Positions 26,871 to 58,721 of a stretch of 64,000 nt of DNA are shown here, piece after piece. Within the stretch, counting starts at the first letter, position 1. The number at the start of each line of letters is the position of its first letter. The stretch lies in the NCBI GenBank assembly GCA_008632985.1, contig QPGO01000037.1, forward strand, positions 496,001-560,000, given 5' to 3'. Under the pieces are notes generated by a model. The model saw nothing but the letters and a program-made list of their open reading frames with translations. It was not told the origin of the DNA and did no database searches. Source of the stretch: Psammoneis japonica (taxonomy: Eukaryota). The translations under genes and the position numbers were made by a program.

Positions 26871-27093
26871 GGCACGTACGCACCGTACCGTATGCTGCCG
26901 ACTGTTGTGACTGATTATATGTTGATGGATGGACAGACTGACTTAGAGAAACATGGTGCGTGACGTGATAATACCAAGGAAACCGTAGAACCTACGAAAG
27001 AGAAAAAACGCATGCAAAGTTCTGCATGAAAGATGCAGATGGGCTTCGCACTGTCAATGATGCTCTCGCTGCTTGTTTCACGAATAACGCACA

Positions 27094-30739: not shown

Positions 30740-31710
30740 TGTGGTGTGATGTGTCCGTCATCATCACATTCACGAGAAATGTGCAAACAATGTGTTCCCT
30801 CAGCATGCAAAACCTTTGCGGTGATGATGGCATGCCACAGTGGAAAACCCACAGGCTCAGATGTTCAACCTGAGCCTGTAGAAAACCAACTGCAGTGGGT
30901 GACGCACTTGATTTTCTGGAGATGTGGGGGGGGGGGGGTCTGACCCTGCTGAGCATGTTCCTGCTGAGCTTGTCCCAGCCTTGTTTGTGCAATCTTGCAA
31001 ACACACAAATTGTGGACAAAAGAGACATTGGTGCCTTCACAGCAAGCTCTCAAGCAGTGGAGTTTTGCCATTTTTAAAATGTCAGGTTCCCCTCTGCCTC
31101 TGTGTGTGTGTGCTCCAAAAAGTCAGCATGGCGAGCTCTTTTGCACACCTCCATTGCCCAGTGCATGCCTTGGCTCAATTGGGTGGAATGTTTCAGAGTG
31201 GACACCATGTTGTGTGACTGATCCCCTGGCATTGTGAAAAACACCAGTGGCTCCATGTTTGTCAACGTTCCTGACAATGACGTGCATGTTGAGCTGCACA
31301 CTTTGATTGTGTGGAGAAACAAGGATGATCTGCTCCACCAGCCAAAGCCACTCTGCCGCCCCCAGCAGACAACATTGACTCCTGCAGCCTGTTTGACCCA
31401 GTCCAGTGGAATGGTCCTGGGCAGCAACTCACTTGGGAGTGCACATGGCCCCTTTCGCTCTCCAACTTTGCTTCTTCGAGTGTGCAGTGGACGCCACAAT
31501 GTCATGTGCAGGAGAGGGCATGGCTTTTCACTGCTCTGCTTTGACCCACCAGTGTAACTCTTCATCAGCAACTCTCCAGATTGAGTGGAACAATTGAAAA
31601 GAAAAGAGGGGGGTGGCCCATCGGGATCTGTGCTGCCAACAGATTGTGAGCAACATTTTGGCTTTCATGGCTGCTGCCTCACACAAGATTGATCCAGGCA
31701 ATCTGGCTTC
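30740..31710 (-). mobile_element. Relic element 3' portion, paralogous to 33711-35035
   Basis: Shared blocks: 30758-30830 with 33742-33813; about 31210-31265 with about 33963-34015; about 31594-31700 with about 34922-35032. Both minus-strand frames end HH..KGFAC*. Confidence 0.55.
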
Positions 31711-31789
31711 AGTCTTTGTGGGGAGTTGTCAACACACACTGTTTTCTCAATCAGTTTGTGTTTGTCAAATTCAGGCAGTGAGAATTGAT

Positions 31790-33180: not shown

Positions 33181-33431
33181 TTTTTGTGCTTTTGCCTTCT
33201 GTGGTGTGTGTGCACAATGCACTGTGCTTGAAGAACAAGCACAAATGAAAGCAGAGCAAATCACAAAAAGTGGAAAATTGTGAGATTAGATTCTGTGCTG
33301 AGATTTTGGGATTCTCTGAAGGAGCCCTCGATGGCCTGAAGCCATCATGCTGCTCCTGCAGAGCAAAGGCCGTGACAACAGATTGTCCAGATGTGATCAA
33401 CATTGACATTTTGTGAGTCAACATCTTTTGT

Positions 33432-33696
33432 CAATTGCACCCGCAATTTTAGACTTCAGATCAATTCTGTGTGATCAATCTGACCGTTGCATGCATCCAC
33501 GATTGTTGCGCAATTGACATGTGCAACAATGTGCAATTGCGAACATGATGTGCAATTTTGTCTGCCAATTGCATCTGCAATTTTAGACTTCTGATCAATT
33601 CTGTGTGATTGATCCAACCATCGTGTGCATCCACAATTGTTGCATGATTGACATTTGGAACAATCTGCAATTGTGAACATGCACAATTTTGTCTGC
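33432..33696. repeat. About 134-bp tandem duplication
   Basis: caattgca..gcaattttagacttc.gatcaattctgtgtgat... occurs at 33432 and 33566, with many CA/TG/CG swaps. Confidence 0.85.
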
Positions 33697-33710
33697 TTGG
33701 CAATGCATGC

Positions 33711-35035
33711 TGCACATGTGTGTGTGTGTGTGTGTGTGTGATCATTGTCACATTCACAAGAAATGTGTGCACAATGCATGCCCTCAGCATGCAAAACCTT
33801 TGTGGCAATGATGATGAGACACCACAGAACTGCTCAAACCAAAACCAGCACTCTGTAGATGGCAAGTGTGGCATTTGATTTTCTTGTGTGTTGCCTGCTG
33901 GTTGTCTTTTGTCAAGGCAGGTTGCCACAGTCCAGACTCCAATGGGGTGGGGTGACCCACAACTGTGTGGCTGATCCCAGCAACACAGAAAACACCAGCA
34001 CTGCCTTGTTTGTCAAAACACATCTGCCAATGTGCTTTGTGCTTGGGGCCACTGCTTCTTTTGGCACAGGAATGATGGGGTGATCTCTGTCAAGGCCACT
34101 CACCCAGCAGGCAAAATGCCAGTCATCATGCAGCGTTTTTGCCTCTGATGGCTTCCAGGCCCATCCACCTTCTTTTCTTGACTGTCTTTCCATCTGCTTC
34201 TTGGAATGCACAAACAATGGCACTGCCACAAGAATTTGTGCTGGAGGAGAGGGAGCACATTCCCAAATGATGAGGCTTGCTGGCACACTCTTTTTTGGAC
34301 ACACCAGCTGGGTGGGATGATGGCCTCATTGCTGTCCATTCAATGTGGCAGAGGGATGTGGCCATGGCATTGTCCCAGAGGAGCAATGCCAACTTGTGCC
34401 AACAAGCAATCAGTTGTTGAATCACAAGAATGACCAATGCTGCAGGCAGGAACAGGTGCCTGTGATGACTTCCTTGATGGCTGTGGGCACAAGACCAAGA
34501 GAAGAGCAAGCATGATGACAGCATGCAGCATCAAGCCATTCATCATTTACCTCAAGTGAACACTGATGAAAGAAACATGTCAAGGGTGATGAGCACACAC
34601 TCTTGCATTTTGGTGGGATTCCAGGCATGGTGCATGGCCAAAAAAAAAAACTCACATTCATGGGTGCACTTGATGAACATGAAGAGGGATGCAGGACATG
34701 ATGGAAAAGCACATTGGTCTGAATGAGTCCAACACTGTAGAACTGATCATCATCTTAGTTGCTTTTGTTGCACTGACATTTCTGCTTGTTTGGGGGTCTG
34801 TTGCAGCAGCAGGTTCAGATCTGCTCTCCATCTCCCATCACACACTTGTTGTTGCTGCTCTGCTTTCACCAGCCACCAGCATGATCGTCCTTTGGCAACC
34901 CTCCACATTGAATGGCACATCATTGAAAAGAAGAAGAGGGGGAGGGCCCATTGGAACCTCTGCTGTCAACATGATTGTGGGCACCATTTTCAGCTTTCAC
35001 GGTGGCTGTTTTGTTCATGATTGATCCAGGCATTG
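33711..35035 (-). mobile_element. Relic element ending in a (CA/TG)n tail, paralogous to 30740-31710
   Basis: Homology blocks as listed for 30740-31710; (TG)12 at 33717-33740 is preceded by TGCACA. Confidence 0.55.
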
Positions 35036-36751: not shown

Positions 36752-39700
36752 CGGTAATTTTCAGAAAAGCAGCACGGAACAAGATTGTCCGGATGGCGCA
36801 CAAGGGAAAAATCGAGACGCAGCAATGGTGTTGGTAAGTGCGACATGCTTGGTGACAAGACATAGTGCAAATAGAGTTCACAGAAGAAGCGGAATGCACA
36901 TAGTTCGTCGACAGAAATTTCATTGTTGAAAGCTTCAACGTTGCTCGTCGCTCGCCCTTCTCGTGTCACAGGCGTCGTTCAACCCAAAGCAATCCGGTTG
37001 TCTCACCGCATCCCTCCATCACCGGACGACGTCTAGCTGAAGCAAAGCATAATGTCGTGAGCGTGAAAAGAACGTACTTTTACCTCCATGGTCTTCCGTG
37101 GAACTTTCAGAGCTCTTGTTGGTGCTGTTTGAGTTTGTGGCTGGTTCTGGCGTCGCAGAGTGAGTGACCTAAGGGTGAGGAGATTGATTCAACCTACAAA
37201 CACGTTGTTTTCGCCACTCTTCAATATTTTCTTGCCTCAACTGCTTGTTCCCGGCGTCTGTTTTTGTTTTTTAAACTGCGACGAAAGGCGTTTACCAGGC
37301 CCTGAACATGAACCGCGTGTTGGTCTTGCAAGACTGACGAATCATCTGAGACGACTCCTCCAGACTATCCAAGACTGATTCTTGCTCGTTGTCCCCGCCC
37401 GCCCTCGTCGCGCTTTCACGCACGCGGGGCCCGCTACATTTTTCAGTTCACTTGTCCGTCGATTTTTTTAATTAGGGGACCTCCCTCCGAGGCTGAAATC
37501 TTTCAATCCGCCGATTGCCGCCATGAGAACCGTAGAGCGCCACTGGCAAAAGATGCCACAGCCATGACGACGATGAACACCGGCATTGCAGTGACCCTCG
37601 GGCCTTCCGACTTCATCGGCCGCATTGGATGGGGTGATGTTGAGCCTCGAGAAGTCAAGAAGGCCTTGGATGGGAGGAAGTTCACGACAGCAAAAAAGAA
37701 ACAGCTTCTCATTCAACCCAAATTGTGGCAGAACTTCGCACAGTCGCTTTGAGTTGACATCGGGCGAGGTTGATCCGCACATTGCTCAACCCGAGGAAGC
37801 GACAAAGGAAATGCCCAATCTCTCAAGAGGCAACATCAGTGGATCAATTTGCAGCGAATGGCAGACATGAACGATTGCTCGTCGAAACAAAATCCAAAAT
37901 GCACAACCACCTTTGAGTTGGCTTTGCCAATTTTCACACTGTTGCAAAAAATCCTCCAAGATGTTGGTGGGACAATGTGCATGTTCGTCCATGTCTCTGA
38001 AGGTCAGCTCTGTGGTGCGAATTGGTTGATTTTGAACGCAGAAGTTGGAAAGGTGCAAGGCGTTTTGTGTGCATGCAGTGAACAAAAACTCAAGCACCAA
38101 CTCACCAGTTTGCTGTTGACTGTGCTCTTTTCTCTTTCTACGCTGATCACAGTCACACATGACTTTTGCTGCAAACTGCTCAAATTCCAGTGTCTCTTGA
38201 GTGGTGTCTTCGAGCACTCCAGTCCCATGGATGCCCTCAAAATTTCGGTGCCAGCCCTCTGGTGCTGGCATCTGGCAGAATTCGCTGCTCTGCACTGTGC
38301 TCTCCAATCTCCCCGCTGCCCTCTTTCAAGTCACCTGGGGCCCTGTCAGTGCAAGCTCGTCATGAAGGCGCTCGCTCCCGCACTGTGTTTCCGTGTGTCG
38401 GCGTGGCTGTTGTTGTGCTGGGAGAGTCTTGTCCTCTGAAAAAGACAGAAAATCAAAGGATGCTGCTGCTCAGTCACTCAAGAAGGGATCAGTCACTGTG
38501 CTCTGGCATTCTGCACAAAGAATTTGGATTGAACTCACTTGTGCTTCCAAAGCAAAACCAATGGAGAATGGAGAATGTGCATCTGGAGAAAAATGAGTGC
38601 ATGGGGAGGACTGTCTCTGTCCTGTTCCAAGCCAAACATGGAAAAGGAGCTTGGGAGGAGACCACAAGGACCCAAGGCCTGGTGCATTCATTGCCATGGG
38701 GTCAGAAGCAGCAGCCATGGCAATGATCAGTCCAAGTTGCCGTCGAAACAAGAGACCTTCCAACTGTTGGCATGAAAAGCCTCTTGGAGAATGTTTGCAG
38801 CTTGTGAGTTGTGTTCTTTGAGATCTGTTGTTCACAAGAAAACATGGGCAGCAAAAGATGTCATGCAAGCACTCCTTCAACCTTTTCTAATCCAGTCACA
38901 TTGGACAAGCTCCCACCCTCGCAATGCATGGGCTCTTTTGTTGCCCGTGTGCCAACTCTCATGACAAGTGTTTTTTGCCAATTCCGCACGTGGTTTCTCC
39001 ATCGACTGAGTGCCCGATTGGCTGGACACTGTTCAGTCTTTGTTGTTCTCTTGCCAACAACATTCATTCCCAGTGAGAAAACGTTGTGAACGAATCATTC
39101 ACAAGTCTCTTGAGTGTGGAGCCCTCGGCTTCTCACAACTGCACCGCGTCGGTGCACGGTCGTTGCAGGGGGGCGCGTTCTTGCATCATTCTGCACTTTT
39201 CCATTCATTGTTCTTTGCAGCAGTGCTCCACATCATCATGTGCACCACTGCATCATGTGACACCAATGCCAAAGTGGCCAGTTTGCTCCACATGATGGCA
39301 GATGGGTGGTCATGGTGTGTTTTGCCGTGTGAATCTTGAATCTCACGTGGCTTGTCGGATTGAAACATTTCAATTTAAAACAGAAAATTAAGAGAGCCCA
39401 TGCAGAGCAGAAGGGAACAGCAGAGGGAGGCACGGAGGTGGCTGCAGTGACGGCAGAGTAGAAGGGCCGAAGGACACAGGACAAAGGGCGTTTAGAGGAA
39501 GGTGTGGGTGAGGAGGGAGCAGGGAGGGAGGAAGTGAATCGGAGGATGTGCGTAGAAAGGTGAAGAACGACGTTGCAGCCAAGGGTTTGGGTGGCCCACT
39601 GGGATGGGGAGGCTGTGCGGCAGGTGCTCCCAAAGCGATCGGCGGACAGGCAATGCCATGCGAAGTCAGCGGATGGAAGGATTGCAGATGGAGATGACAA

Positions 39701-41636
39701 AGCACAGAGGAAGGCGGAGCAGGAGGCAACGGAGTGACAAAAGTCAGAGGAAGAGGACCAGGGCGGCTTGGGCTGAGAGCAGATGGAAGAAGACGCAGGG
39801 CCAAAGAGCAAGCGGTGAGCAAAGCAGCCGAGACCACCAAGGTGATCGACGGTGAAGGGGAGCAGGAAGATGCCATCGTTGTCAAGCAAAGAAACAACAA
39901 GGGATCCATCAGCAAAGGAAGCAGAGGGGCCAAGGAACTTCAATCTCACGCTCGAGTGGTGTGCCTCAGTTAAAATGGGAGAAGAGGGAGCAGGCAGACC
40001 TGGAGGAGGGCAAGAAGGAGCTTGAGGGACGGCAACATCCACTGCAATGTAATGATGATGGGAAGGAGCAGAAAGGGAGGCGGGAGGGGGAATTGTGTCA
40101 ACTGGGGTGTCTGTGGGGTTGGCAGTTGTGTGGTGGGGAAACAGGTGGTGGAGGAGGCGTGTGCAGTGCGCTGGGAGAGGGAGAGAAAAAGGGTTGGCCA
40201 AGGGTGCAGACAGACGGTCGTGAGGAGGAGTTGGTGATGGTGGGATGGCAGAGGAGGAAAGCTTGACATGTGGAGAGATGGTTGGAGAGAGCAAAGCCAA
40301 AATTGAGGCTGAGGATTTGGGAAGCCCAGAGCAGGAGTGTTGCTGCATGACAGGAGGAGCCGAAGTGATTGGTGAAAGTTTGTTTCCAGGCCGCATTGGA
40401 TTGGGTGAGGAGGTTGGAAGGAGCTAAAAGGGAGTTGGTGCAGGCGGAGAAGGATGCGTGCGAGTTGGACAAAGAGGATGGGCTGGACCAGGGCGGTTTG
40501 GGAGGGAGGGGTGGGACGGAGGAAGAGGCAGTGGTGGAAGCGCCAAAGAAAAAGACATGGAAGTGATGTCCAATGCCTCCGAGGTGGTCAAAGGTAAAAG
40601 GGAGGAGGAAGAGGCCTGCTTGGTTGATGGCGTCAATGACGTCGGAGCCATGAGCAGAGGATGTAGAACAGCCGAGGAGCTTGTCCCGAGTGCTGCTGAG
40701 GTGAGCCTTGTTGAGTGGGTTTTCAGGGACAGGCAAACCAGGTGCAGGAGGCGGGGGAGCGGGCGGTGCGGTGACACCAATTGCCAGGAATTGGTGGGTG
40801 GATGGAGCGTTTGGTGGTGTGGAGCCGGGAGTGAGTTGGATGCCGACGTTGGCGGGGTGTTTTAGAGGGTGGTCGGGTGGGAGTCCGGCAGGGTCGAGGT
40901 AGACTTGTTGGCGAGACCGGCAGAGACCGCACATGGGGCCGAGGGTTTCGATGACAGTGTGGATGGTGTCACGGATGTGGTTGGACAGAGGGCCTTTGTG
41001 CATTTTGGAGCAGGCAAAGGCGCGATCGCTGCACGGGTCGGGGTGGGCGTGGCCACATGGGCAGTTGTGTTGGGAGAGGGTGGATGGGACAATGGGCAGG
41101 CGGAGCTTGCGCAGGAGGAGGATTGTGAAGAGGTGTGGCGGAAGGCGGTTGGAAGTGGGGGTGCGGGACAGGGAGTGAAGGCACAGGCTTGTGAGTGGGG
41201 ACAATGGGGATGGGAGCACCAGTTGGATGGAAGGATCAGCGAGGAGCAGGGGAAGGGTGTTGTGTGCATGATGGTGGAGGTGAAGGTGCTGTGAGAGACT
41301 GCATGGGGTGTGGTGTTTGACAGCGTGTGGAAGGGAGGTGAAAGAGGAAGAATCAAGTTTGAGAAGGGTGGGAGCGCAGTGGCGAAAGATTTGGTAGAGG
41401 GAGAGAGTAGAGCAAGGGTTGGACCATGAACCAAGAGCGGCAGAGCGGCTTGAGGGAAGGTGGAAGATGGTGCCACCGGTGAGTGGGATGCCATGTTTGG
41501 TGCAACGGACAGATCGGAGGAGGGAGGTGATTAGAGCGGGGACGGCAACTGCGGAGACATCTCAATGTCCGATGCTGCCCAAGGAGATGGGCAGGGTGGC
41601 AATGAGTTTGGAGGCGGATGGGAACGGGTCGGCATG

Positions 41637-43515
41637 CTACCGGAGGACTCAACCGGTCCCGGCGTCCGTGACTGAAATTTCACCACGGTGAAGCACGAGA
41701 GTCGAATAATTCGATTGGACTCAACCGGTCCCGATTTTGCATTGAAAACGGCATGTTGTACTTTGATGCATCTCGCCATGGCATACATCGTTGGGTCGAT
41801 GTATCTTTCATGTGGGATCTTTTTCTATCGTTGTTATAAAGAGGTTGATGCATTGGTTTGGTTTCCTGGGGGGCTTTGGTGGCGACACACGGTACAAACG
41901 GTTGCGTGCCTCGACTCGTGACTCGATTGCTGCACGGTACGGGTGACATCTGAATGGTCGACAACGTTGCCGTGGTAAGTTCTTTCTGTGTTTTCTCATT
42001 TTATACCGTTTATCTACTCACTGAAGATGTTGTTTGTGCTTTGTTACAGCTTCATAGGAGGATATATCGTCTCGTACGGTCGATTATTGCATCTGCAATA
42101 TTGGCATCTTTTTCACGTCGTCGTCATCACAAAAGCGCATCCGTTTGGGAGCCTTGTGCTTCATCCCACTCCACATCTTTTGGTACATCTATTTTTACTA
42201 TTTATTTGGACTTGTGACAAGCTTGATATGTTTTTGAAGGTCTTGGTCGGCTCGTAATCACAGCATGTCGTTTTTCGGCGATAACAATTTCTTGAAAGTG
42301 CATGCCGTGGGAACAAAACGATGCGATGGAGTCTCGGGGATACTCACGACATTGGCATTTGTCAGACAGCCTTTCCATAGTCCAAAGAAGGTAACCCTGT
42401 GAGCATGTTGTGATTGATTGAGTTTTGGACTCGTTTTGACGAAACTTGCATACCTCACGAGCCTTTTTTGGTGCGTCTCGATCATGCGCACAGGTGTCTG
42501 GTCCTTTTTGACCCTTTCCACCTACCCTTCAACCGCATTATCATCATCATCTAAGACACAATATTGTCCACGTTATTTTGGGAGATCTTTGTGGTGTAAC
42601 TACGACTCTAGGCTTTGCAATGGGTAAAATGGGAAGGTTGAGGCTTGTGTTGGCGGGTTCATCGCCTCCTCTTGAATGCGCGGATGCCACGAACCGCTGA
42701 TGTTACTTGGGGGCATAAAAATTAGTAAGGCGACTCAGCTCTACATTTAAAAGGTGCCCTAGTGAGTATACTGTGACATGTAACCCCAATGGATTATTAT
42801 TGTGTACGTTGTTCCACTCATATTTTCATTTTGCCTGTCATTTTCCAGTGTGACTGTCGTTGACCGTTAAAGCTTGCAGTGGCATTTCCAGGCCCATGTT
42901 CTACATGACAGATATCTTTTGATACTCTTTGCTCATATGGGGAAATCAGATCCTGGAGCACTCAGTTCCTAGTCGGGTGTAGAGAGGTACAAGTGCAATG
43001 GATGAAATTTGGACCAGGGCACAGATGGAGTTGGGGCGAACGTGCTGTTTCTTCTCGCTGGTAGAGTTAGTTAGTGTGGGTGTGCGTGCGGATGGCCTCT
43101 CTATTTAGGGCTACTACTCTCTAGAGTGCTACAGTGCCACTCTAGAGTAGAACTTGGCGCAAAAGGTAAGAGATCAATTTTTTTGTGATTTTCGACTCGT
43201 CGCGGCATCTTCGGCGTTGTCCGTTGACGACGATAAGCAATCAATTGAAATGACTTATAGACTTATAGGCATTTTGTTGTTCTTTAGAGATATGATTGTA
43301 TAGCTTCTAGTATTCTAGCTTTCTTCAAGGGTAGGATTGTATCGCATGTCCTTCGGGAAGAAGTCGCTTTGCGTTATCATTGCGTTGTGGCGGCACTCTC
43401 AAACTCATCCATCGCGGCGGCTTGTGCGTAGGGCTACGTACTAATTCTAGCGAGCGTCCGTCAGTCAGCCGGCGGGACCGGTTGAGGCAGCGGGACCGGT
43501 TGAGTCCGCCGGTAG
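41637..43515. mobile_element. Young non-autonomous DNA transposon, 1879 bp, 25-bp TIRs, CATG target-site duplication; not TpA-depleted
   Basis: Left ctaccggaggactcaaccggtcccg vs reverse complement of right ctaccggcggactcaaccggtcccg (1 mismatch). CATG at 41633-41636 and 43516-43519. Extra ctcaaccggtccc copies near 41720 and 43474. Excision restores the host frame LTQH/ADPFPSASKLIATLPISLG. Confidence 0.9.
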
Positions 43516-43519
43516 CATG

Positions 43520-45076
43520 TTGGGTGAGGCAGGTGAGGAATCGGAGGGAGTGGCCGATGATTTGGTCGGTGAAGGGGGATGCCCATTGAAAAGGGGGTGG
43601 GAAGTCATCGGAGCGCAGAAGGTTGTGACATGTGTCGGCGGACAGCAGGTGGGTGATGGAAGGGATGGAGCACTTGCGGAAGAGGGTGCTTTGTGTTTGT
43701 TTGTCGGTGAGACGGACGGTGAGGCGATGAAGGTCGGTGGCAAAGGAGGTGGCCTTGTTGTGAAGGAAATCGAGGGCAAAAGTGGGCGAACCGATGGGGC
43801 GACCGAGGAAGCGGGTGCCGGTGGTGATCTCGGGCGTGACATGGGGACTGTTGTGGGGATTTAGGAAGGTCAAGGCTTCGGAGAGTGCGGCGGCGTCGGC
43901 AGGTGGGAGGTGGTTGACGGGAGAAGAGCCGGCAATGGATGTGAGAATTTGGGTCTTGGAGGTGTTGAGCTTGATGCCAAATTGGGGGCCGCAGGTGGAG
44001 AGTTGTTGGAGGAACCAAGGGAGCTGGGAGAAGGGAAGGAAGATGTGGGTGTCATCAATGCATGAAGAGGCAGCAGATTTGGAACGGGGAGGGAGTCGAT
44101 GACACAGTTCGTCGTTGACGGGGTGGAATGCGTGAGCCAAAACAAGGTAGGAAAAGGCAGGGCTGAGGGGGCAGCCTTGAGCAAATCCCTCGGGTTGAGA
44201 GAAGGAGGACCATTGCAAGTGGTGGTCACGGTGCCAGCAGGTGTCAGGGTCTTGGCAGAGCAGGTCGAAGAAAGGCACAAGAGGGTGGCACTCGTCGGAG
44301 TTGTCGAGGGTGTGGCGACAGGCATCACGGGAGCATTCGTTGAAACAACTGGACAGGTCAAGGAGGAGGAGAGCTTTGGTTGGCGTGGAGTCTGGTTGAA
44401 AGTGTCGTTCGATGTTGGCACAGGTGGTGTCGACGAGGCAGTCGAGACCTCCTTTGACTCCGACTCCAAATTGGCCAGAGAGTGGGAGGTTGGCAGCAAA
44501 GGTGGCGGCAAAAAGGAACATGATGAGGGTGCCGATGATTCTGTGAAGGGCGGTTCCGACGCTGATGGGTCGAAGCTTGGATGGGTTGGATGAGTCTTTG
44601 TGGAGAGCGAGGAAGTGGTTGGAAGAAAAGACAGGTTTGATGGATGCAGGGATGTCCGCTGCAAGAATGAGATCGAGCAGATGTTTGAAGGTGAGCAAGC
44701 AGGGGCAGGAAGTGGATGTTGGCGTGGAACGGCGGTGGAGGGCGCAGGCCTTGAATGGGTCGGTGGAATCGGCAAAGGTGCCGGGTGCTTTGCCTGGTTG
44801 ACATTTGGCGAGGGCTTTGCGGAGATCGTCGGTGGTGCAGTGCAGGGGGGAGGAAGCAGATCGTTGGTGTCGGGTGGAGGGGGGAGAAGGCAGCGGTGGG
44901 TGTTTCCGGGGCGGATAAAGTTGCTTGACAAGTTCCATGCGTTCGGGGGTGAGAGAGGCAACGGGAAGGGAGGAGGTGGCCCGGGCGCAGGCGGCATGAA
45001 GGTTGTTGACGTTAGCGGCAATTTGGGCAGAGTGGGCGCAGGATGTGTTGTCAAAGTCGGGAGGTTCGTCAGACAT
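43520..45076 (-). pseudogene. Reverse transcriptase domain of CRE element B; catalytic YIDD reads CIDD
   Basis: ORF 43325-45076. The codon at 44060-44062 (minus strand TGC) precedes ATT GAT GAC. The frame continues at 41632 after removing the insertion. Confidence 0.9.
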
Positions 45077-47779
45077 GTCTGGGATGGGTGTTGAGCAAGA
45101 TTGGTCATAGAGGGCACGGATGGAACCGTTGCGGAAGAGGAAAAGACGTTGTGTGATGGTGGTGGAGAGAGGGATGTTGGAGTTCTTGGGGCGTGGGTGG
45201 AGGACGAGAGATTCAAAGAGGAAGAGGAGCTTGAAGAAAGGGTCAGAGGCTGTTTGCCAAGAAGGGGGTGGGTCGTCGGCGGGGTCGAAAGGCTTGGAGG
45301 AGTCGACAGTCCATTGGATGAGATGATGGAGGGTGAGAAGGACCTAGAGGCGAGAGGAAGGGGGGAGTTTGTGCCAGATGGAGGCGCAGAAGGGCGGAGT
45401 CGACAGGGGCAGTGAGTGGAGCCACTGAAGGGAGGCTGCCCAATCAGCAAGCTCTTGGCATGGGTGGGAGGATGCAACGAGCTGAAGATTGGCAGTTGTG
45501 CGGAATTGAAAATGGATGTCAGAAATGTGGGTGTGTGGGTGAGTGTCACGGAGGTGCATCTTGGTGGTTCGTTGGCAATGTCGGCATGGGTGCAGGTCAT
45601 GGAGCTCGAAAAAGGAGTTGGGGATGGCAAGGAGGCTGCGGTGTTTGTGTGCAGAAGAGAGATGCATGCGCAGAAGCTTGGGCACTTGAGGCGGAGGAGC
45701 ATTGGGTGGGAGGGAGAAGGAGCAGCCCTCGAAGGGGCAGGAGCAGTTGGCAACCCCTGGTGGGGTGCGGGTGCCGATGGGTTCCATTGCTGGAGGGTGG
45801 GGCGAAGTGTGTTGGGGTCTTGATTGGTGTCAGCAGCCTGTTGGGCGAGTGTGGTCCACTCAGCGAGGTGTGTGGGAGCAAAGGAGTGGACCCATTGGTC
45901 GAAGACATCGAGAAGCTCAAGGTCGCGTTGAGAGCACTCGATGTCCATGTCGGGTGGGTCGGGGTGTGGCGTGCATTCTGTGGGTGTGGACGGGGCATTG
46001 CATGTCAAGGTGGGAGTGTCGGTGGCGAAAGGGTCGGGGTCCATGGCAGCAGTTTCGGAGGAGAACGTGGAGCTGTCGAGGTCGGGAGGGTGTGAGCGTT
46101 TCTTGCGTTGTTGAGAAGGGGGCGTGCGGGTGCTGTCGCGTGTCAGTGCAATTGGGGACGGTGGCGTGGGTTCCCAGGAGGCTTCGAGGAAGGAGAGGGC
46201 TGTTTCGGACAGGGTGTCTTTTGAGAAGGTTGAGAGGTTGCTTGGGCAAAGGACGCAGATGTTCGGGCAGGGGAGGGAGGGGGGCGGCGGGGAGGGAGGT
46301 CCTTGAGGAGGTGTTTGGGGATGTTGGGACAGAGGTGGAGGGTGGCGTCAGTGATGTCCATGACAAACGGGGTGGCGAAAAAAAGGAGCTTGTGTCGGAC
46401 TGGGGTGTCACTGTGAGAGAAAAAAACAGGGATGAAACCAAAAAGGTCAGGGGTGGAGAGAAGTTCGTCGTAGTCGGAAGGCGCGGAGATGTTGAGGCGG
46501 CTCGTGACGATGGCAAAGCTGTCGGCTTGGCGTTTGTTAATGGCTTGCAGGCGCGTGGCGATGGGAAGGGTTTTGGGAAAGGAAGGGAAGGGGACAACCG
46601 AAAGGGAAAGGCCGAGGATGTGCATGATTGGAGGCGGCGTGTTGGAAGGGTTGACGACGGATAGAAAGGAGGTCCACATTTCGGGCGTGGAGGTGGTGAG
46701 AAAGTAAACGTCAGACTGGGGGATCTTGGCGGTTTGGGCGGAGAAAGTTGGGAAGCGGGAGGGGCGGACACCGACGTGATCAAGGAAGGTGCTGCACTCA
46801 GAGAAAAGAGAAAGGGTGGGGTCTGAGGGGTTGGCAGGTAAAAGGGATTTGACGTGAGTGTGCAGTTGTTGGAGAAGAAATTTGCAGGTGCATCGAGATT
46901 GACCATGGGTTTTGGGGTTGATGCCGGCGAGGATGCCGCGGGCTTGTTCAGTGAAGGAGTTGCAAGCAGGGATGAGAAAGGTGGCATAGCGAGTCCAGGG
47001 GTTGGGAGATGCGGGGGTGTCTATGGCATCCGAGGGAAGGAAGTCAGGGGAGGTGGAGGAGGCAGAGTGGTGCTTGAATTGTGTGGGAGGGTGCAGGTGC
47101 CACTTTTGCACAGTGAAGCAGAGAACTTGGTCATGGAAAGGGAGGAAATCGAAGGGTTCGTGGGAGGAGACGGGAGCAAAAGTTAGTTCGAAATAGGAGG
47201 CCCATTGATTGTGGTGAGGGCGGGAGCGGTGCTTGGTTGCAGAAAAGGTGATGTTGGCAATGTCGAAGAGAAGGCGGGGTTCACGTGCAGCGTGTGTTCA
47301 GAGGGTGGTTTGGACAATGGAGTGGACGCCGTCAACATCGATGGCGGGTTCGGGCTTGTCGGCAGGGTTGGATGGGTGCAAGAATTGAAGAAGGAGCTTG
47401 GCGGTGGTCGGAAGTGGGTTGGGATCGATGGTGTCGGTGGAGGCGTCAGGCTGCACATGAGTGTTGGAAGCATCGGGAATTTTGGTGGCGGGAGAAGGGG
47501 TGGCAGCAGCAGTGAAGATGGAAGAGGAGTCAAGGGATGGAGGGTGGGAAGGGGAAGTGACTGTGTGGACAGTTGGGGGCAGAGGCTGGGCTGGGGTCTT
47601 GGGTGGAGACGCAGGCAGGGAGTGGGGGTCGTGGGGGTCGCGTGGTGGGGCAGTGGGGGTTGGAAGCAAGGGTTGAGATGTCTGGGAGTCTTGGGAGTTC
47701 TGGATGCTTTCTTGGAGGGAGGGCCAGTTGGAGTGGTCATTGAGGGAGGACATGGCGGAGTGCAAAAGGGAGCGAAAGG

Positions 47780-48240
47780 CGGAGTCGAAGTCGAAGGCAG
47801 AATCGAGGGTGGAGTCGGAGGCGAGAGCGGAGTCGGGGGTGGAGTCGGAGGTGAGAGCGGAGTCGGGGTTGGAGTTGCAGAGGTTGAAGTGTTGCGCAGG
47901 TTGTCTGTGCATTGTAGGAGATTTGACATGTTCAGAGTCGAGTGCAGGAAATTGGATGTGTTCAGAGTCGATGTGGTGCGTAGATTCCCCGTGTGTCGCA
48001 GGAAAGTTGATGTGTTCGGAGTCAAAGTCAAAAGCGGAATCGAAGTCAGAGCAAGAAACAAAAGCAGAGTTGTGGTCATTGATGTGTTGCGTAGATTTCT
48101 CATGTGTCGCAGGAAAGTTGATGTGGTCAGGGTTGAAGCAAAAAGCGGAATTGAAGTCAGAGTCGGAAATGAAAGCAGAGTTGTGGCCATTGATGTGGTG
48201 CGTGAATTTGTTGTGTGTCGAAGGAAAGTTTTTGTGTGCC
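47780..48240. repeat. Coding tandem repeats (30-bp and about 108-bp units) in the CRE B ORF1 region
   Basis: Repeated ggagtcggagg.gagagcggagtcgggg and gatgtg.tgcgtagatt...tgtgtcgcaggaaagttgatgtg units. Confidence 0.75.
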
Positions 48241-49205
48241 GCAGGAAGGGAGAAGGTGTGAGCAGACACAAGAAGGAGGGCAGTTGGGGAGGGTGCACAA
48301 AATCGTGGCTGAAGCAAAACTTTTTGATGGGGGGCCATTGAGGGTGTCATGGGGGCCACAAGAAGGGTTGGAGAAAGAGAATGAGGAGATGGGGTCAGAG
48401 GCCGGAACACGACTGACAGTGCAGGGGTGATCGTGGAGGAGGGCATGCGATGAGGGGGAGAGGGAGAGGGAGAGGGAGGGCTGTTGGGGGTGTCAGAAAG
48501 GGGTGATGGAGTGGGGCTGTGTGGTTGTTTGTGGGGGGGTGGAAAGAGGAAGGATGGAAGGGGGGTGATGGTGAGAGAGGGGGGCAACAGTGGGGAAGGG
48601 GTCGCAGGAGCAGCGCACGGGTTGAGGACGATGAGGAAAATGGCGAAAACCGAAATGACGCGGAGGAGGTGCCACAAAGCGAAAGGCCCAAGGAGTGGTG
48701 GTGGGTCGGGAGGCCATTTCGGAAGGTGCAGCGAAGCGCTGCTTGACTGGGGAGTGAACCCCATCGGCGTTGTCAATGGGGCTTTCACAATCATCGTTGG
48801 ACGGCAGCTAAGTTGCACGCATGTTGATTGAAATGCCGACATCGGCGGGACGGAGAAGCGGGCGGCGGGTGGGGAGCAGGTTGGCAGGCTCGAGATGAAC
48901 GTCATTGGGGGAGCGACAGAACTCTGCAAGGGGTCAGGGAGGTCCCATATAAATAAAAAAATCGACGGACAAGTGATCTGAAAAATGTAGCGGAACAACA
49001 CGTAGAATTCTACACCCGTACATAAATAGGAACCACGATTCACACGACTCACCCGTGTCAGCAATTTTGAATCTTCACATCATGAACTCACATTTTAGAA
49101 AAAGCCTGGATGCGATTCCAGAGGAGTTCTCATTGTTATTTGCATCAACCACAACAACTCGAAAAAGACAATAGTCGACCACATATTGTGTCAACAGATC
49201 CATCT

Positions 49206-49553
49206 ATGGCTGACGACGACATCAAAACGGACGTTGAAAAGCAAGAGGAGGCAGCGCTTGAGCCGGAAGGCGTGGAGGACCAAACCAACGACGAAACGAC
49301 GGAAGAGAACAGTTTCAAGTCCAATTATTCATACCAGGCAAATTACTCCGCCTTTTCCCTCTACGCGTCATTTTGTGTTGCCTGTTTTTTGAGCTTTATG
49401 GCTTTCGGAAGCATCGTAAGTTTCTTTTGTTGTACAGAACAGATTTTCGAATGCTGGCATCTGTTGTTTATGGATGCGGCTACAACACAAGCAACCACTC
49501 ACAACTCACCTTTCGCTCGTCCGCAGGGCGCCAGTTTCAGCGTTTTCTCTATT
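49206..49553 (+). CDS. 5' part of a small membrane-protein gene (exons 49206-49415, 49527-49553); continuation not found
   Basis: MADDDIKTDVEKQEE... followed by a hydrophobic helix. GTAAG donor at 49416, CAG acceptor at 49526, second GTAAG at 49554. Confidence 0.45.
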
Positions 49554-50940: not shown

Positions 50941-53900
50941 CTATTTCCTCCAGATTGTTCCATCCTCGTATTCGACTTCTAAGACTTTGCAGCCGGGCCC
51001 AGATTCAATCCCCTGCATGACGTGACGCTTGCAACCCTTTGTTACGGTGCTCGACTTCTTTTTTCCAGTTTGCTTTGCTTTGTGCGGATGATTCTTGCTC
51101 CTCCAGACTGTTCCATCAGCGTACTCGACTTCGAGGACTTTGTAGCCCCGCCCAGTCTTCTTCTTTCCAGTCTGCTTTGCTTGGTGCGGACTATTCTTGC
51201 TCTTCTTGGATTTGCTAGTAGGTAAACTACCTGGTGGCGACGCAAGCATGAGGGGGGCCACAGGTACGCTGTTCTTTCGCTGGTATCGAGCGAGTTTCTT
51301 CTTCATTTCGTTCGTCAGCATGTGGTCTCTGCATTGCTTGGGCGTTCTGGCTTGAACAAAACGTGCAGAAATGATTTCCCACTTGTGTAGTTCGTTCTTG
51401 TAATTCTCGAATCCTTCGAGCAAGAGAGATTCTTCCTGCTCTGTCCAAACGGTCGCAGTCACGATAGCGTTCGCGCCATTCGTACATGCATAAGTGACGC
51501 TTCGCTCGTTTGGACGTTGAAAGAGAGCCAGCTTATGCTTCATGGTCTGGGTGTTCATGCGCTCTTTGCACTGCGAGGGAGTTCGAGTTTGAACAAAATT
51601 CGCCGAAATCGTCTCCCACTTACGCACTCGGTGCTTGCATTCGTCAAAGCCCTCAAGCAAACGGGCGTCCTCTTGTTCAGTCCAAAAGTTGGTCTCTGGG
51701 GATTTCTCTCCCGAATGCCCTGAAAGAAACTCATGCCCTTCGCCGTCTGAGTACGGGCCCGCTTTCTGGGGAGGCTCGAGCCGCTATCAAAAGCATTTGC
51801 AGCCAAACTCGTGCTCGGCAAAGTACTCTCGACTGCCTGTTCCATCAAGCAATGAATCAAACTTCCACTCTCGCTCCTTGATACCGACTTTTCAGCTGCA
51901 AAAACCGCATTAGTGGTCGATCCCATGTTTGTCCATTGCGGTAAGCTTTGCTCCAGTCCTCCTCGTTCGCGCCTCCCCTCGAGTAGGGAAGAGGGAGTGA
52001 GAGACGCTAAAATTTCAGCAGTGGTGTTTACAAGACCAATGATGGAGGAAGAAGTTGGATTCGTGGGTTGATTAGCTTGCTGAATTGCTGGCACAGTTCC
52101 GTTGCTCCCTTGATGTTGAAAAGAACCGACTTTCTGCTTTATGGTTTTGGTGCGCATACGGTCTTTGCACTGCTTGGGTGTTCTTGTCTGGACCAAACTG
52201 GAGACTTTGTCCCAGCTCTCGATGTCGTCCTTGTATTTGTTGTAGCCTTCCAGTAAGAGGGCATCTTCGTGCTCGGTCCAAAGGCCTGTAATGTTAAGCG
52301 ATTTCTCGCCGGTAGAGGCCTTTTTTGCATCGGTAGTCGTGGAGAGTAGTGGCGATGCCAGAGAAGAAAACGCTGTGGCAGTAGTATCGGACTGCTGATT
52401 ATGTACCAGGGATGGAAAATCTCCGCTAGTCTCTGGAGGTTGCAACGAGGTTAGTTGAGTCTCGGAATGCTCTTGCGGTGTCAGGTCCATTTCCTCGCGA
52501 ACGCATTGAAAGAAAATAGAATCGTCTGCTGGAGGAGTACGTGCCCGTTTTCGTTTGGGACTTCTGACACTCTTCTTGCTTTCGTCCCTCGTCTTGCTGG
52601 AATCGAGCTTTCGCCGCATGGTTTGGGTGCGCGTGCGATCTTGGCACTGTTGGGGTGATTTTGACTGAACGTAGTGCTTCGAGATATTTGTCCAATTGTT
52701 CCCATAGCGATTGCACCCCTCAAGCAAGAGAGCATCTTCTTGCGCGGTCCAAGAAGTGGGGCACTTCCTCTTGCTACCACTGACTGCAGCAGAAGCTGAG
52801 AGCTCCTGCTGTGGTTCCTGTTCGTTCCGAAGGGCTTCTTCTTGATCCGTGCAGCGAGACGTTTGGAGGCTGTTTTGGGGTGCTTGGTCCTGCCTGTGAT
52901 CAATGCTGTTACCTTCAATCTCGCCCGCTTTTTCTGGACTATACTTAGGAGGCGACGAGTTGTCGGTGACGGGCACAGATGCAGCAGCAGCGTTTATTAC
53001 AATGGCTTCCTGATGCTCCAATCCCCTTGCGCTGCTCCCAACCATCTCACCCGGCGAGTCCGCGGGGTTACTGCGGAATCAATATCTACGGTCCGAATGC
53101 TTGTCGAGTTACTGCTGGTAGAGGAGACAGTGTTGAACTGTTGTGGTTGCTGCGGTGGTGGTGCAGGCGTGCAACTCTCAGTAATTTCCGACTGCTGCTC
53201 CAGCTCCTGCGGTGCCTGTTCCGTCTGACTCTTCAAAAAGGCAGAGACTTTCTCCTTCATTTTCTCGATCCTCATGTGCTCCTCGCATTGCTTTGCGGTT
53301 CTTGTTTGAACAAAGCTTGCCGAAATGGTTGGCCACTTCGGCCTTTTGTCCTTGCATTGGTATAGCCTTCGATCAAACGGCTTTCCTCTTCTTCGGTCCA
53401 ACGGCGAGACCTGGGCCTGCGTTCCGGTGCTTGGCCCTGTTTGTGCTCACTACCGTGAACGCTACTCTTGCCCGCTTGGTCAGGACTTTGATTGGAGGAG
53501 GACGACGGCTTGTCAGCGCCGGGTACGTGTACAGCACCATCATTTGATGATTCTTCTGAACGCCCCAATTCCTTCGTATTATTCCCAATGCTATCGTCGC
53601 GCAAGTCCGCCGTGGGAACTGCGGTATCTTTGTCTGCAGTCCGGGTGTTTGTCGAGCTACTGCTGGTAGAGGAGGAAACAGTCGGGGACTGTTGTTGCGG
53701 TTGTGGTGGTGCGGGCGTACGGGCCTCCTCAGAATTCGACTTCTTATCCTTCTGTGCCTGTTCGGCCAGGCTGGTCATAAAAAAAGAGAGCTTCTCCTTC
53801 ACTTGCTTGGACGACGACGAGTTGTCAGCTTCGGGTACGTATACAGCAGCTGCAATTGGTGCTGCTTCTGACTGCCCCAACCCCTTTGTGATATTCCCAA

Positions 53901-56900
53901 CGCTATCGCCGGGCAAGTCCGCAGCAGGAACTGCAATATCCTTGTCTGCAGTCCCGGTGTCTGCCGCACTACTGCTGGTAGAGGAGGAATGTGCAGGCGT
54001 AGAACTCTCAGCAGAAATCGATTGCCCTTCCTGAGGTACCTGTTCGGTCTGGCTGGACATGAAAGCAGAGAGCTTCTCCTTCATTCCCTTGGTCCTCATG
54101 TGTTCTTCGCATTGCTTTGCGGTTCTTGTTGGAACGAACAAAATCGAAACGGCTAACCACTTTGGCCTTTCATCCTTGCACTTGACATAACCCTCAAGCA
54201 ACTTGCTTTCCTCTAGGTCGGTCCAACGAGGCCTATTGGGCTTGCGAGGCCTCTTGGACTTGCTTTCCGATGCTCGGTCCTGTTTGCTGTCCATGCCTTG
54301 AACGTCACTAATACCCTCTTGGCATGAACTCTGCTCGGAAGACAAAGCGTTCTCAGCGGCAGGTACACTAGGAACTTTTGAACGTGCTTCTTCTTGCTCC
54401 GAACTCCCTACGGAATTGTCGATCATCTCCTCCGACATTGGGACTGCGGTGGATGGTGTAGAATGCCTGTTTGCCATCTGCATAGTTTCCAAGCCGGGCT
54501 GGATTTGTGCTGGTGACGTTGGAAGAGACTCGCAAGTTCCAGCCGTTTCGAGCTCTTGTTGCTGCGGTAAACTTTCGAACTGGTTCTGTCGAGATAAACT
54601 TGCGGGCTGCTCCTGCTGCAGTGGCACCCTTTCTGAACGATCCTGCAGCAGCAGCTGCTGCATCGGTGCGGTTTCGGACTGGCATTCCTGCTGCTGCTGC
54701 TGCTGCTGCTGCTGACCGCTTTCAGACGGATCTTGCTGCTGCGGTGCTTGTTCCAGCTGACTTGTTAGATAAGCAGCCAGTTTTTCTTTCATGCTTTTGC
54801 ACTGCATGTGTTTCTTGCATTGCGAAGCGGTTCTTGTTTGAACAAAACGAGACGAAATATTGGCCCACTTTGGTGTCACGTCCCTGCATGCAACATAACC
54901 CTCGAGCAGCTGGGCCTCCTCTTTAGCTGTCCAGTATCTAGTTGCTGGCCTGTTGTCTTCGGTAGGGGGGCGACTGTCATTGGTGATAGACGCTTCTGGT
55001 GGTGGTGCCTCGGGTCCTGCAGTTTCGCCATTGCTACTGCCTTGACCGTCGTTCGGAGTAACCGGCTGCGTACTCGTCTCATCAGACGATGACGAGTCGG
55101 TGATTGCTATAGCGGCTGACGAGTTCAGCTCTAGTTCGCGACTGTCGCTCTTGCCGTCGTGTGACAAATCATAAGTGGGAACAGCAGTACTCTGCAATAC
55201 TCCATCCACCACGTGTTGGTCCAATTCATTCCTCTCACTTTTCGAGGAGGACGAGCTGTCCCCAGCAATCCGCGCAGCAGTACTCGTGGCTGCTACCTCC
55301 GCCACGTGTTGCCCCAATAATCCTTCCTTAGCACTCTGCTTGGACGAGTCGCCATCCATGGGTGCAGTAGAAGGACTCTTGGTTGCTTCTGCCGTCGCGG
55401 GTATTTCCGATCCGTTCCTCATGTCCGCCGAGGACGAGGAGTCAGCAGTACTGGATACACTACTTTCGGTCGCACCCTCCACAACGCCTTGTTCCAATCC
55501 TTGTGTTTTCTCGTCTACAGGTAGCGAGTTGTGTTCCAACTGCTGCTCCGGTGCTGCTAGTGCGTTGTTGCTCGCAGTAAGCGGCTGATGAGCAGCGGAT
55601 GGAGAGGCCTTGTCGCTGTTGAGAATACTAGCAATTTCGGACGCTTCTTGTGCCGACGAAACTACAGCTGTAGCATTTTGGGACGCGTCTTGTGTTGCCG
55701 TAGATTCAGTAATTGCCGATGATTCTGCTGAACGACAGAGTTTTTCCAACCTTTCCTTGATACGCTTGGTCTTCATGTGAGCCATGCACGACGCCGCAGA
55801 GCGAGTCTTGACATAGTCTTTTGAAATCACTGCCCATTTGCGACGGTTATTGTTCTTGTGTACCTGGTATCCCTCAAGCAAGCGATCCTCCTCTTGGCTG
55901 GTCCACCAATGAACGACGCGTTTTGCAACAACACTCTGCTTTTCTTCGAGTGCTGCACCATCTTGTGGCTGATGAGTTGCTTCAGCATGGCCCATAGGTG
56001 TTGGACTCTTGCCTGGCAATGCGTCGTCCTTTCTTTGAGCTGCCGTATCTCCGGTTTCTTGCGTGACTTGCTGCTCAATCCGCGTCTCGGGTGACGTCGA
56101 GGCGGGTGCCGTGGATGCGTTCGCCGCGTCTTGCCCCTTGGTCGCCGTGGATACATTATTTGATTCACCACTGGTCATTGCGGCTCGTGACTGTTCCGGC
56201 GCACCTCTGTCGGTCCGTGACGTGTCATCCTTGGTGTATGTCTCGGCCTGTGCTATCGTTTCGGTCGCACCTGATGCAGTGCTTGATAACGACTTGTTCT
56301 CATTCACTACTACTGCTTCCTGCAGAACTCCTTGCCCGCTCCCCGCGATCACCTTGGAAGAAGAGCCTCCGGTTTCTGCGTCGAATCTTGTAGCAGGCAA
56401 TGACGAGTTGTCCTCGGCGGATGTTTCCATCACGTGCTGTCCTTTCGCTTTGGTCGCTGCGTTTGACAAAGAGCAAGTGGCTGCAGCAGTACTACTACTC
56501 TCGATGCTTGCTGCCTGCTGCTCCCTCGCACCTCTGTTGGGCAATGCCAACGGCACAGCGTTGACCTTGGGTGCTCCTGCTACTGCTTTCGTCTGTTGGT
56601 TCAATCCCTGACTTGTTGAGTCAGCGCGTACTTGTTGCTGTCCTTGTTCCAACCCTACCAACGCGTCGGATGTTTCTACCGCGCTTTCTGTTGCTGCAGT
56701 AGCAGTAGTAGGCAGAATGACTGCTTGTTCTTGCTGGACTGGACGACACGACGATGATGCATGACTAGATGACAATGCTGCCAGTTGATCCAATGATTCA
56801 AATCCGTCACGCCTCACTTGTGGTAGTGGAGGAGTGACTTGAGCAGCTGGAGGCTCTTTTCCCAGCACTTGTAAGGTAGGCGGTGACGGGGCTGAAGGCG

Positions 56901-58710: not shown

Positions 58711-58721
58711 GAGTGCTGAAC

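Follow-up and report, generated by a model that had tools for sequence, protein, structure and literature searches.

The locus and its retrotransposon

The stretch of DNA considered here, referred to below as the window, comprises 64,000 nucleotides of Psammoneis japonica (NCBI GenBank assembly GCA_008632985.1, contig QPGO01000037.1, positions 496,001 to 560,000 of the forward strand). The element in question is a copy of a non-long terminal repeat (non-LTR) retrotransposon, which lies on the minus strand of the window between 39.4 and 49 kb, and whose reverse transcriptase (RT) has been almost completely deprived of TA dinucleotides (TpA). The first clue came from an earlier note, made from the letters of the sequence alone, which reported that the catalytic RT motif, usually (Y/F)xDD, reads C-I-D-D in this copy, and which took this single change as evidence for the conversion of TA to TG.

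A word-indexed homologue search retrieved 29 proteins, and an exhaustive one retrieved 1,160 at E <= 0.001, the best of them 41-45% identical; full-length members of the family measure about 1,200-1,300 residues. When five full-length relatives were used as tblastn queries, homology to the second open reading frame (ORF2) extended from 45448-45793 down to 43484-43532 and resumed at 41591-41636, to continue until approximately 40188. The gap corresponds to a nested element of 1,887 bp bounded by terminal inverted repeats (TIRs), which contains internal copies of a 17-nt word, has no open reading frame (ORF) of 130 residues or more, and shows high summed contig depth across most of its length in two sequencing runs. 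A TAG codon also interrupts ORF2 in frame, upstream of the RT domain. Broken by this stop and by the insertion of the nested transposon, the copy in the window is dead.

The region beyond the insertion encodes a C-terminal domain with Cys/His motifs and endonuclease-like features, and the segment 40098-41561 (minus strand) aligns with the C-terminal 467 residues (757-1223) of the family protein P0032 (BLASTP, E 3e-38). The motif reads C-x-C...S-D-R-x-F-x-C in the window copy versus G-D-H-x-F-x-C in the relative, and a Pfam scan yielded no match in this domain. In addition, a profile built from 28 family members found its nearest solved structures among R2 proteins (9nl3_A, E 1.7e-8; 9dou_A, E 2.5e-8), ahead of LINE-1 ORF2. 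In an intact relative (locus L009), one long ORF spans at least 1,193 residues and a second one 1,264. From the R2-like structures, the Cys/His domain and the two ORFs of L009, the element would be classed within the group of non-LTR retrotransposons that carry a C-terminal endonuclease. The C-terminal domain is present once more directly downstream, in a divergent copy truncated at its 5' end. Since the two copies (40.2-40.9 kb and 39.5-40.2 kb) are 36-48% identical in tblastx segments, they were considered too distant for a comparison of TG and CA outcomes, and this candidate was set aside.

With regard to the surroundings, contigs that join position 39376 to 48951/48957 lack the retroelement block and represent the flank without the element; the retrotransposon thus seems to be lodged in another repeated sequence with flanking TIRs, itself depleted in TA at 38-39.4 kb. 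The inverted repeat that brackets the block (37431-37486 and 48936-48993) measures 44-58 nt and is 91-95% matched. Other contigs join 40090 to approximately 48826-48830, a pattern suggestive of recurrent insertion into a single type of site. Self-comparison of the window revealed no direct repeats flanking the block, and no RNA gene that could serve as an insertion target was found in the window (Rfam 0, tRNA 0). Contig depth is about 75-340 in the 5' part and climbs to 1,000-5,400 toward the 3' end, although copy number is poorly reflected by summed depth. A tandem array with a period of 111 nt (3-4 copies, 67-89% identical) occupies positions 47886-48237, in the 5' part around the ORF1 region.

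The element also displays a marked compositional asymmetry: the plus strand between 39.4 and 49 kb contains 0.37-0.46 G and 0.12-0.17 C (GC skew +0.5), so that the sense strand has about 0.43 C and 0.14 G, compared with 0.36-0.45 C and 0.13-0.16 G in the closest related loci. The possibility that this skew reflects mutational damage was rejected. A G-poor sense strand is common to all 42 related metagenomic loci (GC skew -0.07 to -0.57) and the relatives' proteins are likewise rich in Pro, Thr, Ser and His and poor in Gly and Glu; the skew is therefore native to the family. The features of the locus are collected in Table 1.

Table 1. Features of the retrotransposon, its surroundings and selected codons (window coordinates; a dot denotes features without strand)
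Feature	Position	Strand	Basis or remark
Whole retroelement block	39377..48950	-	G-poor sense strand, TA-purged; composition
Left arm of inverted repeat, possible outer TIR element	37431..37486	.	Partner at 48936-48993; brackets the retroelement block
Second C-terminal-domain copy, 5'-truncated, divergent	39536..40165	-	Directly downstream of the first; tblastn
ORF2 C-terminal domain, Cys/His-motif and endonuclease-like	40188..41632	-	Continues the RT ORF past the insertion; BLASTP, tblastn
Nested element, 1,887 bp, splitting ORF2	41633..43519	.	29-nt TIRs at 41633-41661 and 43491-43519, 97% complementary
ORF2 N-terminal part and RT domain	43520..45793	-	Pfam RVT_1; tblastn with five full-length relatives
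RT motif C, S-C-I-D-D	44051..44065	-	Cys codon TGC at 44060-44062; in frame in the RVT_1 domain
Tyr399 codon TAC	44147..44149	-	One of six residual TAs; relatives mostly Cys; 14 of 14 covering contigs TGC
His371 codon, Tyr-majority column	44231..44233	-	Tyr in 43/84
Cys363 codon TGC, strongest Tyr column	44255..44257	-	Tyr in 71/83 relatives
His314 codon, Tyr-majority column	44402..44404	-	Tyr in 43/83
His243 codon CAC, Tyr-majority column	44615..44617	-	Tyr in 55/80 relatives; contigs of other copies TGC (Cys)
In-frame TAG stop in ORF2, upstream of the RT domain	45344..45346	-	Relatives' homology continues through it in the same frame
ORF1-homologous part	46305..47360	-	tblastn with ORF1 of locus L009, E 1e-20
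Purged blocks	1-22900, 25000-27000, 31000-35000, 38000-41632, 43520-49000, 57000-60900, 62000-64000		TA content

Loss of TA and its products

The RT part of the element (43520-45800) contains 6 TA dinucleotides, while 100 would be expected from its base composition, that is, an observed-to-expected ratio (rho) of 0.06 (0.07 with slightly different bounds). In 39 of the 42 related metagenomic loci this ratio lies between 0.41 and 0.90, and the three others (L010, 0.02; L035, 0.03; L033, 0.26) are also low in TA and look purged. In L010 (3501-3946) and L035 (1-500) the depletion ends near the end of the element-like sequence, with a rho of 0.39 and 0.55, respectively, beyond it versus 0.00-0.14 and 0.05 inside. 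CpG, in turn, shows a rho of 0.88 in the RT part, inside the range of the relatives, which indicates that the loss of TA outran ordinary decay.

The fate of the lost dinucleotides could be followed by comparing the purged locus L010 with the unpurged L008, which are 75% identical across 3.5 kb; the evidence for hypermutation is comparative and does not consist of de novo mutations. Of 146 aligned TAs of L008, L010 presents CA in 56 cases, TG in 49, TC in 17 and TT in 6; TA is kept in 6 and the remaining 12 correspond to other outcomes. Thus, CA or TG account for 105 of the 140 lost TAs. All other dinucleotides are retained at 41-77%, and this difference from the nearly complete loss of TA identifies TA as the ancestral state. 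Because the two products are about equally frequent, the change can be described as A:T to G:C on either strand. The polarity from TA to TG proposed in the earlier note is therefore upheld by the ensemble of sites and by the L010/L008 pair, with the qualifications that the conversion of TA to CA is just as frequent and that the motif-C codon alone is insufficient to establish it.

Conversion of tyrosines to cysteine and histidine

Such a process would leave a recognizable footprint on proteins. Alteration of the A in the sense strand would turn TA into TG and a Tyr codon (TAY) into a Cys codon (TGY), whereas alteration of the A in the opposite strand would turn TA into CA and Tyr into His (CAY). 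In an alignment of 28 sequences, the window copy presents, at the columns where Tyr is the majority residue, Cys at 215 and 363, His at 243, 314 and 371, Tyr at 79 and 143, Leu at 115 and Trp at 645. A larger alignment of 88 sequences, evaluated in a leave-one-out manner, defined six Tyr-majority columns, at which the window copy has one Tyr, two Cys and three His. All five Tyr lost at these columns have thus become Cys or His, as the earlier note had anticipated, and not random residues. At the same six columns, 40 of the 500 cells of the 84 pooled relatives are occupied by Cys or His, only 3 of them by Cys; the excess in the window copy corresponds to a binomial P of 1.8e-5, a value that must be taken as approximate since the sequences are related. 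In this comparison the window copy ranks ahead of all others among the 83 sequences listed, followed by the purged L010.

The codon for Tyr399 maintains one of the few residual TAs. As every contig covering it reads TGC and Cys is the usual residue of the family (Table 1), this TA may represent a later change. In addition, eight more family proteins (P0142, P0151, P0027, P0147, P0126, P0171, P0052 and P0148) contain less than 1% Tyr and 3-5% Cys, compared with a family median of 2.7% Tyr, and are probably further purged copies from other sources, to judge from their amino acid composition.

Motif C and the reverse transcriptase frame

The plus strand at 44051-44065 reads GTCATCAATGCATGA, whose reverse complement, TCA TGC ATT GAT GAC, encodes S-C-I-D-D. 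The motif given in the earlier note is thus present as described, on the minus strand, a detail that the note did not mention. It corresponds to residues 427-431 of a stop-to-stop frame of 672 codons (43325-45343, minus strand), which matches Pfam RVT_1 at residues 251-472 with an E value of 4.5e-9 and 36.7 bits, the curated cut-off of this family being 29.6 bits. The ORF of 583 residues cited in the note is this same frame counted from Met90. Its statement that the RT-derived part has a single Tyr is accurate inside the Pfam match, where Tyr399 stands alone, and does not extend to the complete 583-residue ORF, which has three (143, 399 and 671). The invariant columns N335, G386, Q389, G390 and P392 are retained in the window copy. 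At the RT locus, all three frames of the minus strand are open for hundreds of codons, in agreement with the scarcity of G and the near absence of TA on this strand, and for this reason the open 672-codon frame provides no evidence of function.

In the 88-sequence alignment, the motif-C column is occupied by Tyr in 50 sequences, Ile in 12, Phe in 11, Val in 4, Leu in 2, and Trp, Ser, His and Cys in one each. The relatives can be summarized as S/A-[Y/I/F/V/L/W/S/H]-x-D-D, and the window copy keeps the two Asp and has Cys at the first catalytic position. This Cys, which is no accident of the alignment, is the only one in the column: 50 of 83 relatives have Tyr and none has Cys, and so no family member naturally encoding C-I-D-D, which the note had regarded as a possible objection, emerged among these relatives. 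It must be considered that the position is variable by nature, since 33 of the 83 relatives have a residue other than Tyr. On the other hand, TGC is a single transition away from TAC, within a TpA, and two changes are needed from Ile or Val. These facts, together with the frequency of Tyr in the relatives, make Tyr the best candidate for the ancestor of the motif-C Cys. The complementary outcome may be represented by P0171, which carries S-H-I-D-D at motif C and, given its low Tyr (0.6%) and high Cys (3.5%), is probably another purged copy.

Comparison with further copies of the element

Of the words sampled from the RT part, 43% occur in a public sequencing run of the same organism, and 2,288 contigs of this run align on 39000-49500 at 80% likeness or more, which indicates that the element is multi-copy. 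Some copies are free of the nested insertion, as deduced from contigs that join 41621/41630 straight to 43514/43520. The comparison of copies described next rests on 40 of the 1,882 differences between these contigs and the window. All five contigs that cover the site carry both 44616 T>C and 44617 G>A, so that residue 243 is His (CAC) in the window and Cys (TGC) in other copies, implying that one ancestral TAC turned into His in one copy and into Cys in others. A second TG versus CA pair between the window and other copies is found at 41566-41567, and TA in contigs stands opposite TG of the window at 41305 and CA at 45628.

Distribution of the purge across the window

The depletion of TA extends beyond the retrotransposon. 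The window is a mosaic in which about 70% of the classified sequence (43,918 of 63,103 bp) is purged, the TA rho of consecutive 1-kb windows in these blocks being 0.00-0.16. Pooled, the purged blocks show a rho of 0.08 for TA, 0.44 for CG, 1.60 for TG and 1.70 for CA, the excess of TG and CA having been measured on the pooled blocks; the corresponding values in the 19,185 bp of normal blocks are 0.56, 0.93, 1.22 and 1.19. All Pfam-recognised host genes, namely a kinase, a PP2C, an FG-GAP protein and three Myb proteins, fall in normal blocks. Moreover, these genes keep their synonymous TAs: NTA makes up a share of 0.34 among Leu and Val codons and NNT|A one of 0.31, versus 0.12 and 0.02 in the element, and this was taken as an argument against a genome-wide bias. 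Self-comparison of the window detected little repetition among the purged blocks.

Regarding the purged blocks other than the retroelement, three of them (1-22900, 31000-35000 and 57000-60900) contain long open frames of up to 567 codons in TA-free DNA that have no Pfam match and are probably false ORFs resulting from the loss of TAA and TAG; CpG in these blocks falls to as low as 0.03, as expected of methylated DNA. The 212 TAs that survive in purged blocks are biased in context, with ratios to the normal blocks of 0.66 for TTAA, 0.45 for CTAA/TTAG, 0.03 for ATAT and 0.02 for ATAC/GTAT. This bias could be due either to a preference for flanking bases or to later new mutations, and the L010/L008 pair neither confirmed nor refuted a rule for the 3' neighbour.

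As for the host genes, the kinase is conserved and its best named relatives are found in the pennate diatoms Amphora, Cylindrotheca, Nitzschia and Fistulifera (59-64% identity), which marks the host as diatom-like. The PP2C phosphatase is split between two overlapping minus-strand frames (29508-29975 and 29882-30598), which denotes an intron or a frameshift. Three adjacent minus-strand ORFs of 280, 507 and 1,368 codons at 50941-57378, with Myb DNA-binding repeats, normal TA content and internal repeats about 70-80% identical, look like a tandem cluster of Myb genes.

Origin of the purge

Taken together, these observations can be integrated by assuming that the element is a dead, multi-copy non-LTR retrotransposon that was hit, at the DNA level and symmetrically on both strands, by A:T to G:C hypermutation at 5'-TA-3', acting on particular blocks of DNA and sparing the host genes. 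We consider this proposal likely. The blocks acted on would include the retroelement, the TIR-flanked sequence around it and other blocks that resist annotation. The agent would be an enzyme, the simplest candidate being a DNA adenine deaminase specific for TpA, and the target would be mobile or foreign DNA. Within this scheme, the change of S-Y-I-D-D to S-C-I-D-D would count among the Tyr conversions of this sort in the RT, which number at least five, and the resulting Cys might disable the enzyme, as the note proposed; the copy is in any case broken by the stop and the insertion. The motif-C codon is thus a clear illustration of the process, but it is not the strongest evidence for it.

Several facts weigh against this explanation. 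In the tree, the window copy pairs with P0011, which bears Tyr at motif C, with a support of 0.60; the enclosing clade (support 0.83) otherwise has Ile or Val, and the nearest clade amounts to seven Ile, four Val and one Tyr, so that the ancestral residue is uncertain and the codon alone cannot polarize the mutation. The closest relatives found by search share 41-45% protein identity, and no close copy was seen to have TAC at this codon, position 44061 being absent from the 40 of 1,882 differences on which the comparison of copies is based. There are also extra Cys residues in place of Phe, Met, Leu or Trp (302, 333, 352, 451 and others) that a change from TA to TG cannot explain. The window copy mismatches 11 of 82 conserved columns, compared with a family median fraction of 0.07, which denotes some ordinary decay, although this is far below what the loss of TA would suggest. 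The nested TIR element has a normal TA content (rho 0.75) amid purged DNA despite its high summed depth; as it is repeated, either repetition alone does not trigger the process or the element is too young. Finally, the purged blocks outside the retroelement gave no Pfam match above the cut-off among the ORFs scanned (those of at least 130 residues and 150 of the 152 ORFs of 80-129 residues), an AvrLm4-7 match in the short-ORF scan (E 9e-4) remaining below its own cut-off, and the 567-residue ORF at 11680-13380, the only purged-block ORF of this kind searched, has no homologue at E <= 1e-3. With no recognisable content in these blocks, the notion that mobile DNA is targeted depends on the retroelement and its TIR-flanked surroundings.

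Two alternatives appear improbable to the same degree. The first is that the changes were coupled to retrotransposition, with the RNA of the element (A to I, as in ADAR-like editing) or its first-strand complementary DNA (cDNA) being deaminated in each new copy, which would make the mutations copy-specific and bounded by the ends of the element. The depletion does end within about 200 bp of the 5' end of the element at 48.95 kb, as it does near the element ends in L010 and L035; copies differ at the same sites, and ADAR prefers U before the edited A, as stated in a 2026 preprint (bioRxiv 10.64898/2026.01.13.699255). Yet editing of RNA alone would yield only TA to TG in the sense strand and editing of cDNA alone only TA to CA, whereas the outcomes are balanced (49 TG and 56 CA in L010; two Cys and three His in the window). 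Furthermore, the purge is equally strong in the surroundings (38-39.4 kb) of the element and in some 34 kb of further DNA devoid of any RT.

The second is a slow, untargeted, genome-wide bias from TpA to TpG or CpA that erodes all unselected DNA, the TA-normal stretches being either selected or young. That about 70% of the classified window is purged and mostly unannotatable, and that the purged blocks are low in CpG (0.44 versus 0.93), like old methylated DNA, would be compatible with such erosion. It fits poorly, however, with the synonymous TAs of the host genes (NTA 0.34, NNT|A 0.31), with the normal TA content of both the nested TIR element and the region 49.0-50.9 kb, which lacks a Pfam-recognised ORF, and with the state of the RT part, in which more than 90% of the TAs expected are gone while CpG has not decayed (0.88) and 71 of 82 conserved columns are intact.

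Still less probable is that TA avoidance and C-I-D-D are native to an active sublineage, for instance one escaping a host factor that recognizes TA, and that the ORF is functional. The frame is certainly open for 672 codons, the two Asp of motif C and N335, G386, Q389, G390 and P392 are kept, and relatives tolerate Ile, Val, Phe or Leu at the motif-C position. Against this stand the loss of Tyr at the best-conserved Tyr columns (at 363, Tyr in 71 of 83), the in-frame TAG of ORF2 and the 1.9-kb insertion that splits it, the different residue (Cys versus His) that contigs of other copies have at the same column, and the composition of the strand, whose near absence of TA and scarcity of G fit with open frames.

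Systematic miscalls from modified bases are known in some long-read data, and no library type is recorded for the window source or for the runs. Even so, an artefact of assembly or base calling, by which modified TpAs of silenced regions would be misread as G or C while the TAs are still present, is the least credible option of all, considering that the same signature is found in the independent metagenome contigs L010, L035 and L033 and in some nine Tyr-poor, Cys-rich family proteins from several sources, that TG or CA appear cleanly and without an excess of CG, unlike what mixed-strand miscalls would produce, and that similar changes in Bigelowiella were scored as de novo mutations (bioRxiv 10.64898/2026.01.13.699255).

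Significance and relationship with known systems

The hypermutation at TpA favored here has implications that go beyond this locus, as the signature is indicative of a natural enzyme that acts on adenines of DNA within one specific dinucleotide. DNA purged in this way loses the TAA and TAG stops as well as the Tyr codons, and this causes gene finders to call long false ORFs, as can be observed here in the three open frames of the element strand. The annotation of transposons fails on such DNA, the other purged blocks having yielded no Pfam match above the cut-off, and the compositional statistics of diatom genomes will be distorted by the purge. The occurrence of the same signature, close to saturation, in the genome of a diatom-like host, as well as in metagenome contigs that are unrelated but carry the same transposon family, would shift the phenomenon from the curiosity of one alga towards a general defence of protist genomes. 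As a tentative extension, to which we would give slightly less than even chances, diatoms might possess a fast, near-saturating defence that hypermutates TpA, by deaminating adenine or by turning A:T into G:C in some other way, on both strands of newly resident mobile DNA. This would be a mirror image of the repeat-induced point mutation (RIP) of fungi and would represent the same system as that of Bigelowiella, old and widespread in protists of the stramenopile, alveolate and rhizarian (SAR) assemblage; by erasing Tyr codons and TAA/TAG it would make transposons unrecognisable and fill genomes with long false ORFs.

With respect to the element itself, the resemblance is to the R2/CRE/NeSL/Ambal group, with which it shares an RT nearest to R2, a C-terminal Cys/His motif, two ORFs (in L009), a depth that rises toward the 3' end and a 5'-truncated neighbouring copy. 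Within this comparison, the closest relatives of the window copy are unusual in being G-poor on the sense strand (G 0.13-0.16), and no RNA-gene target was found in the window (Rfam 0, tRNA 0). The CRE clade, to which the note assigned the RT, would be one possible placement; Ambal belongs near CRE. Elements annotated as 'LINE/Ambal' are described as abundant in the diatom Pleurosigma in one study (PMC12803021).

Fungal RIP converts C to T at CpA and thereby creates TpA. The purge resembles it in being a transition hypermutation of DNA, specific for a dinucleotide, that riddles mobile elements, spares genes and leaves compositional blocks behind. The arrow is nevertheless reversed, since TpA is destroyed, CpA and TpG are created and it is a base of the A:T pair that changes. 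Another difference from RIP is that the nested TIR element, in spite of its high depth, is unmutated, so that duplication alone is seemingly not a trigger. In a paper on diatom DNA methyltransferases, RIP is mentioned only for fungal relatives of DNMT4 and the term 'deaminase' is absent. A parallel can also be drawn with the G to A changes caused by APOBEC3 and the A to G changes caused by ADAR in animals, which are context-dependent transition hypermutations of the deaminase type that kill copies of retroelements. Unlike these, which act on one strand, of cDNA or RNA, and leave an asymmetric signature, the purge produces TG and CA in balance and also affects DNA without a recognisable RT.

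The closest precedent is provided by mutation-accumulation lines of the chlorarachniophyte Bigelowiella natans, in which, as reported in the preprint, integrated DNA of giant viruses and virophages gains A to G and T to C changes almost exclusively at TpA, RT and DDE Pfams are enriched among TpA-depleted coding sequences, and a DNA adenine deaminase is proposed (Mettrop et al., bioRxiv 10.64898/2026.01.13.699255). The text of this preprint makes no mention of diatoms; our literature searches found neither a report of the signature in diatoms or in algae other than that of the preprint, nor a follow-up on the Bigelowiella hypermutation. Both cases share the conversion of TpA to TpG and CpA on either strand, the presence of RT-type Pfams among the depleted sequences and the abundance of depleted regions that cannot be annotated. 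They differ in the host, a diatom-like stramenopile here and a rhizarian there, and in the target, a retrotransposon in one case and integrated giant virus or virophage DNA in the other. Depletion is near saturation in the window (rho 0.06-0.08) compared with 0.45 for the Bigelowiella region derived from a nucleocytoplasmic large DNA virus (NCLDV) (bioRxiv 10.64898/2026.01.13.699255). In addition, CpG depletion coincides with that of TpA in most purged blocks of the window, unlike in Bigelowiella, and the evidence is comparative here and derived from de novo mutation there. What the window adds is a case, of a kind known from one preprint, in which a retrotransposon of a diatom-like genome has been purged of TpA almost to saturation, with parallels in metagenomic relatives.

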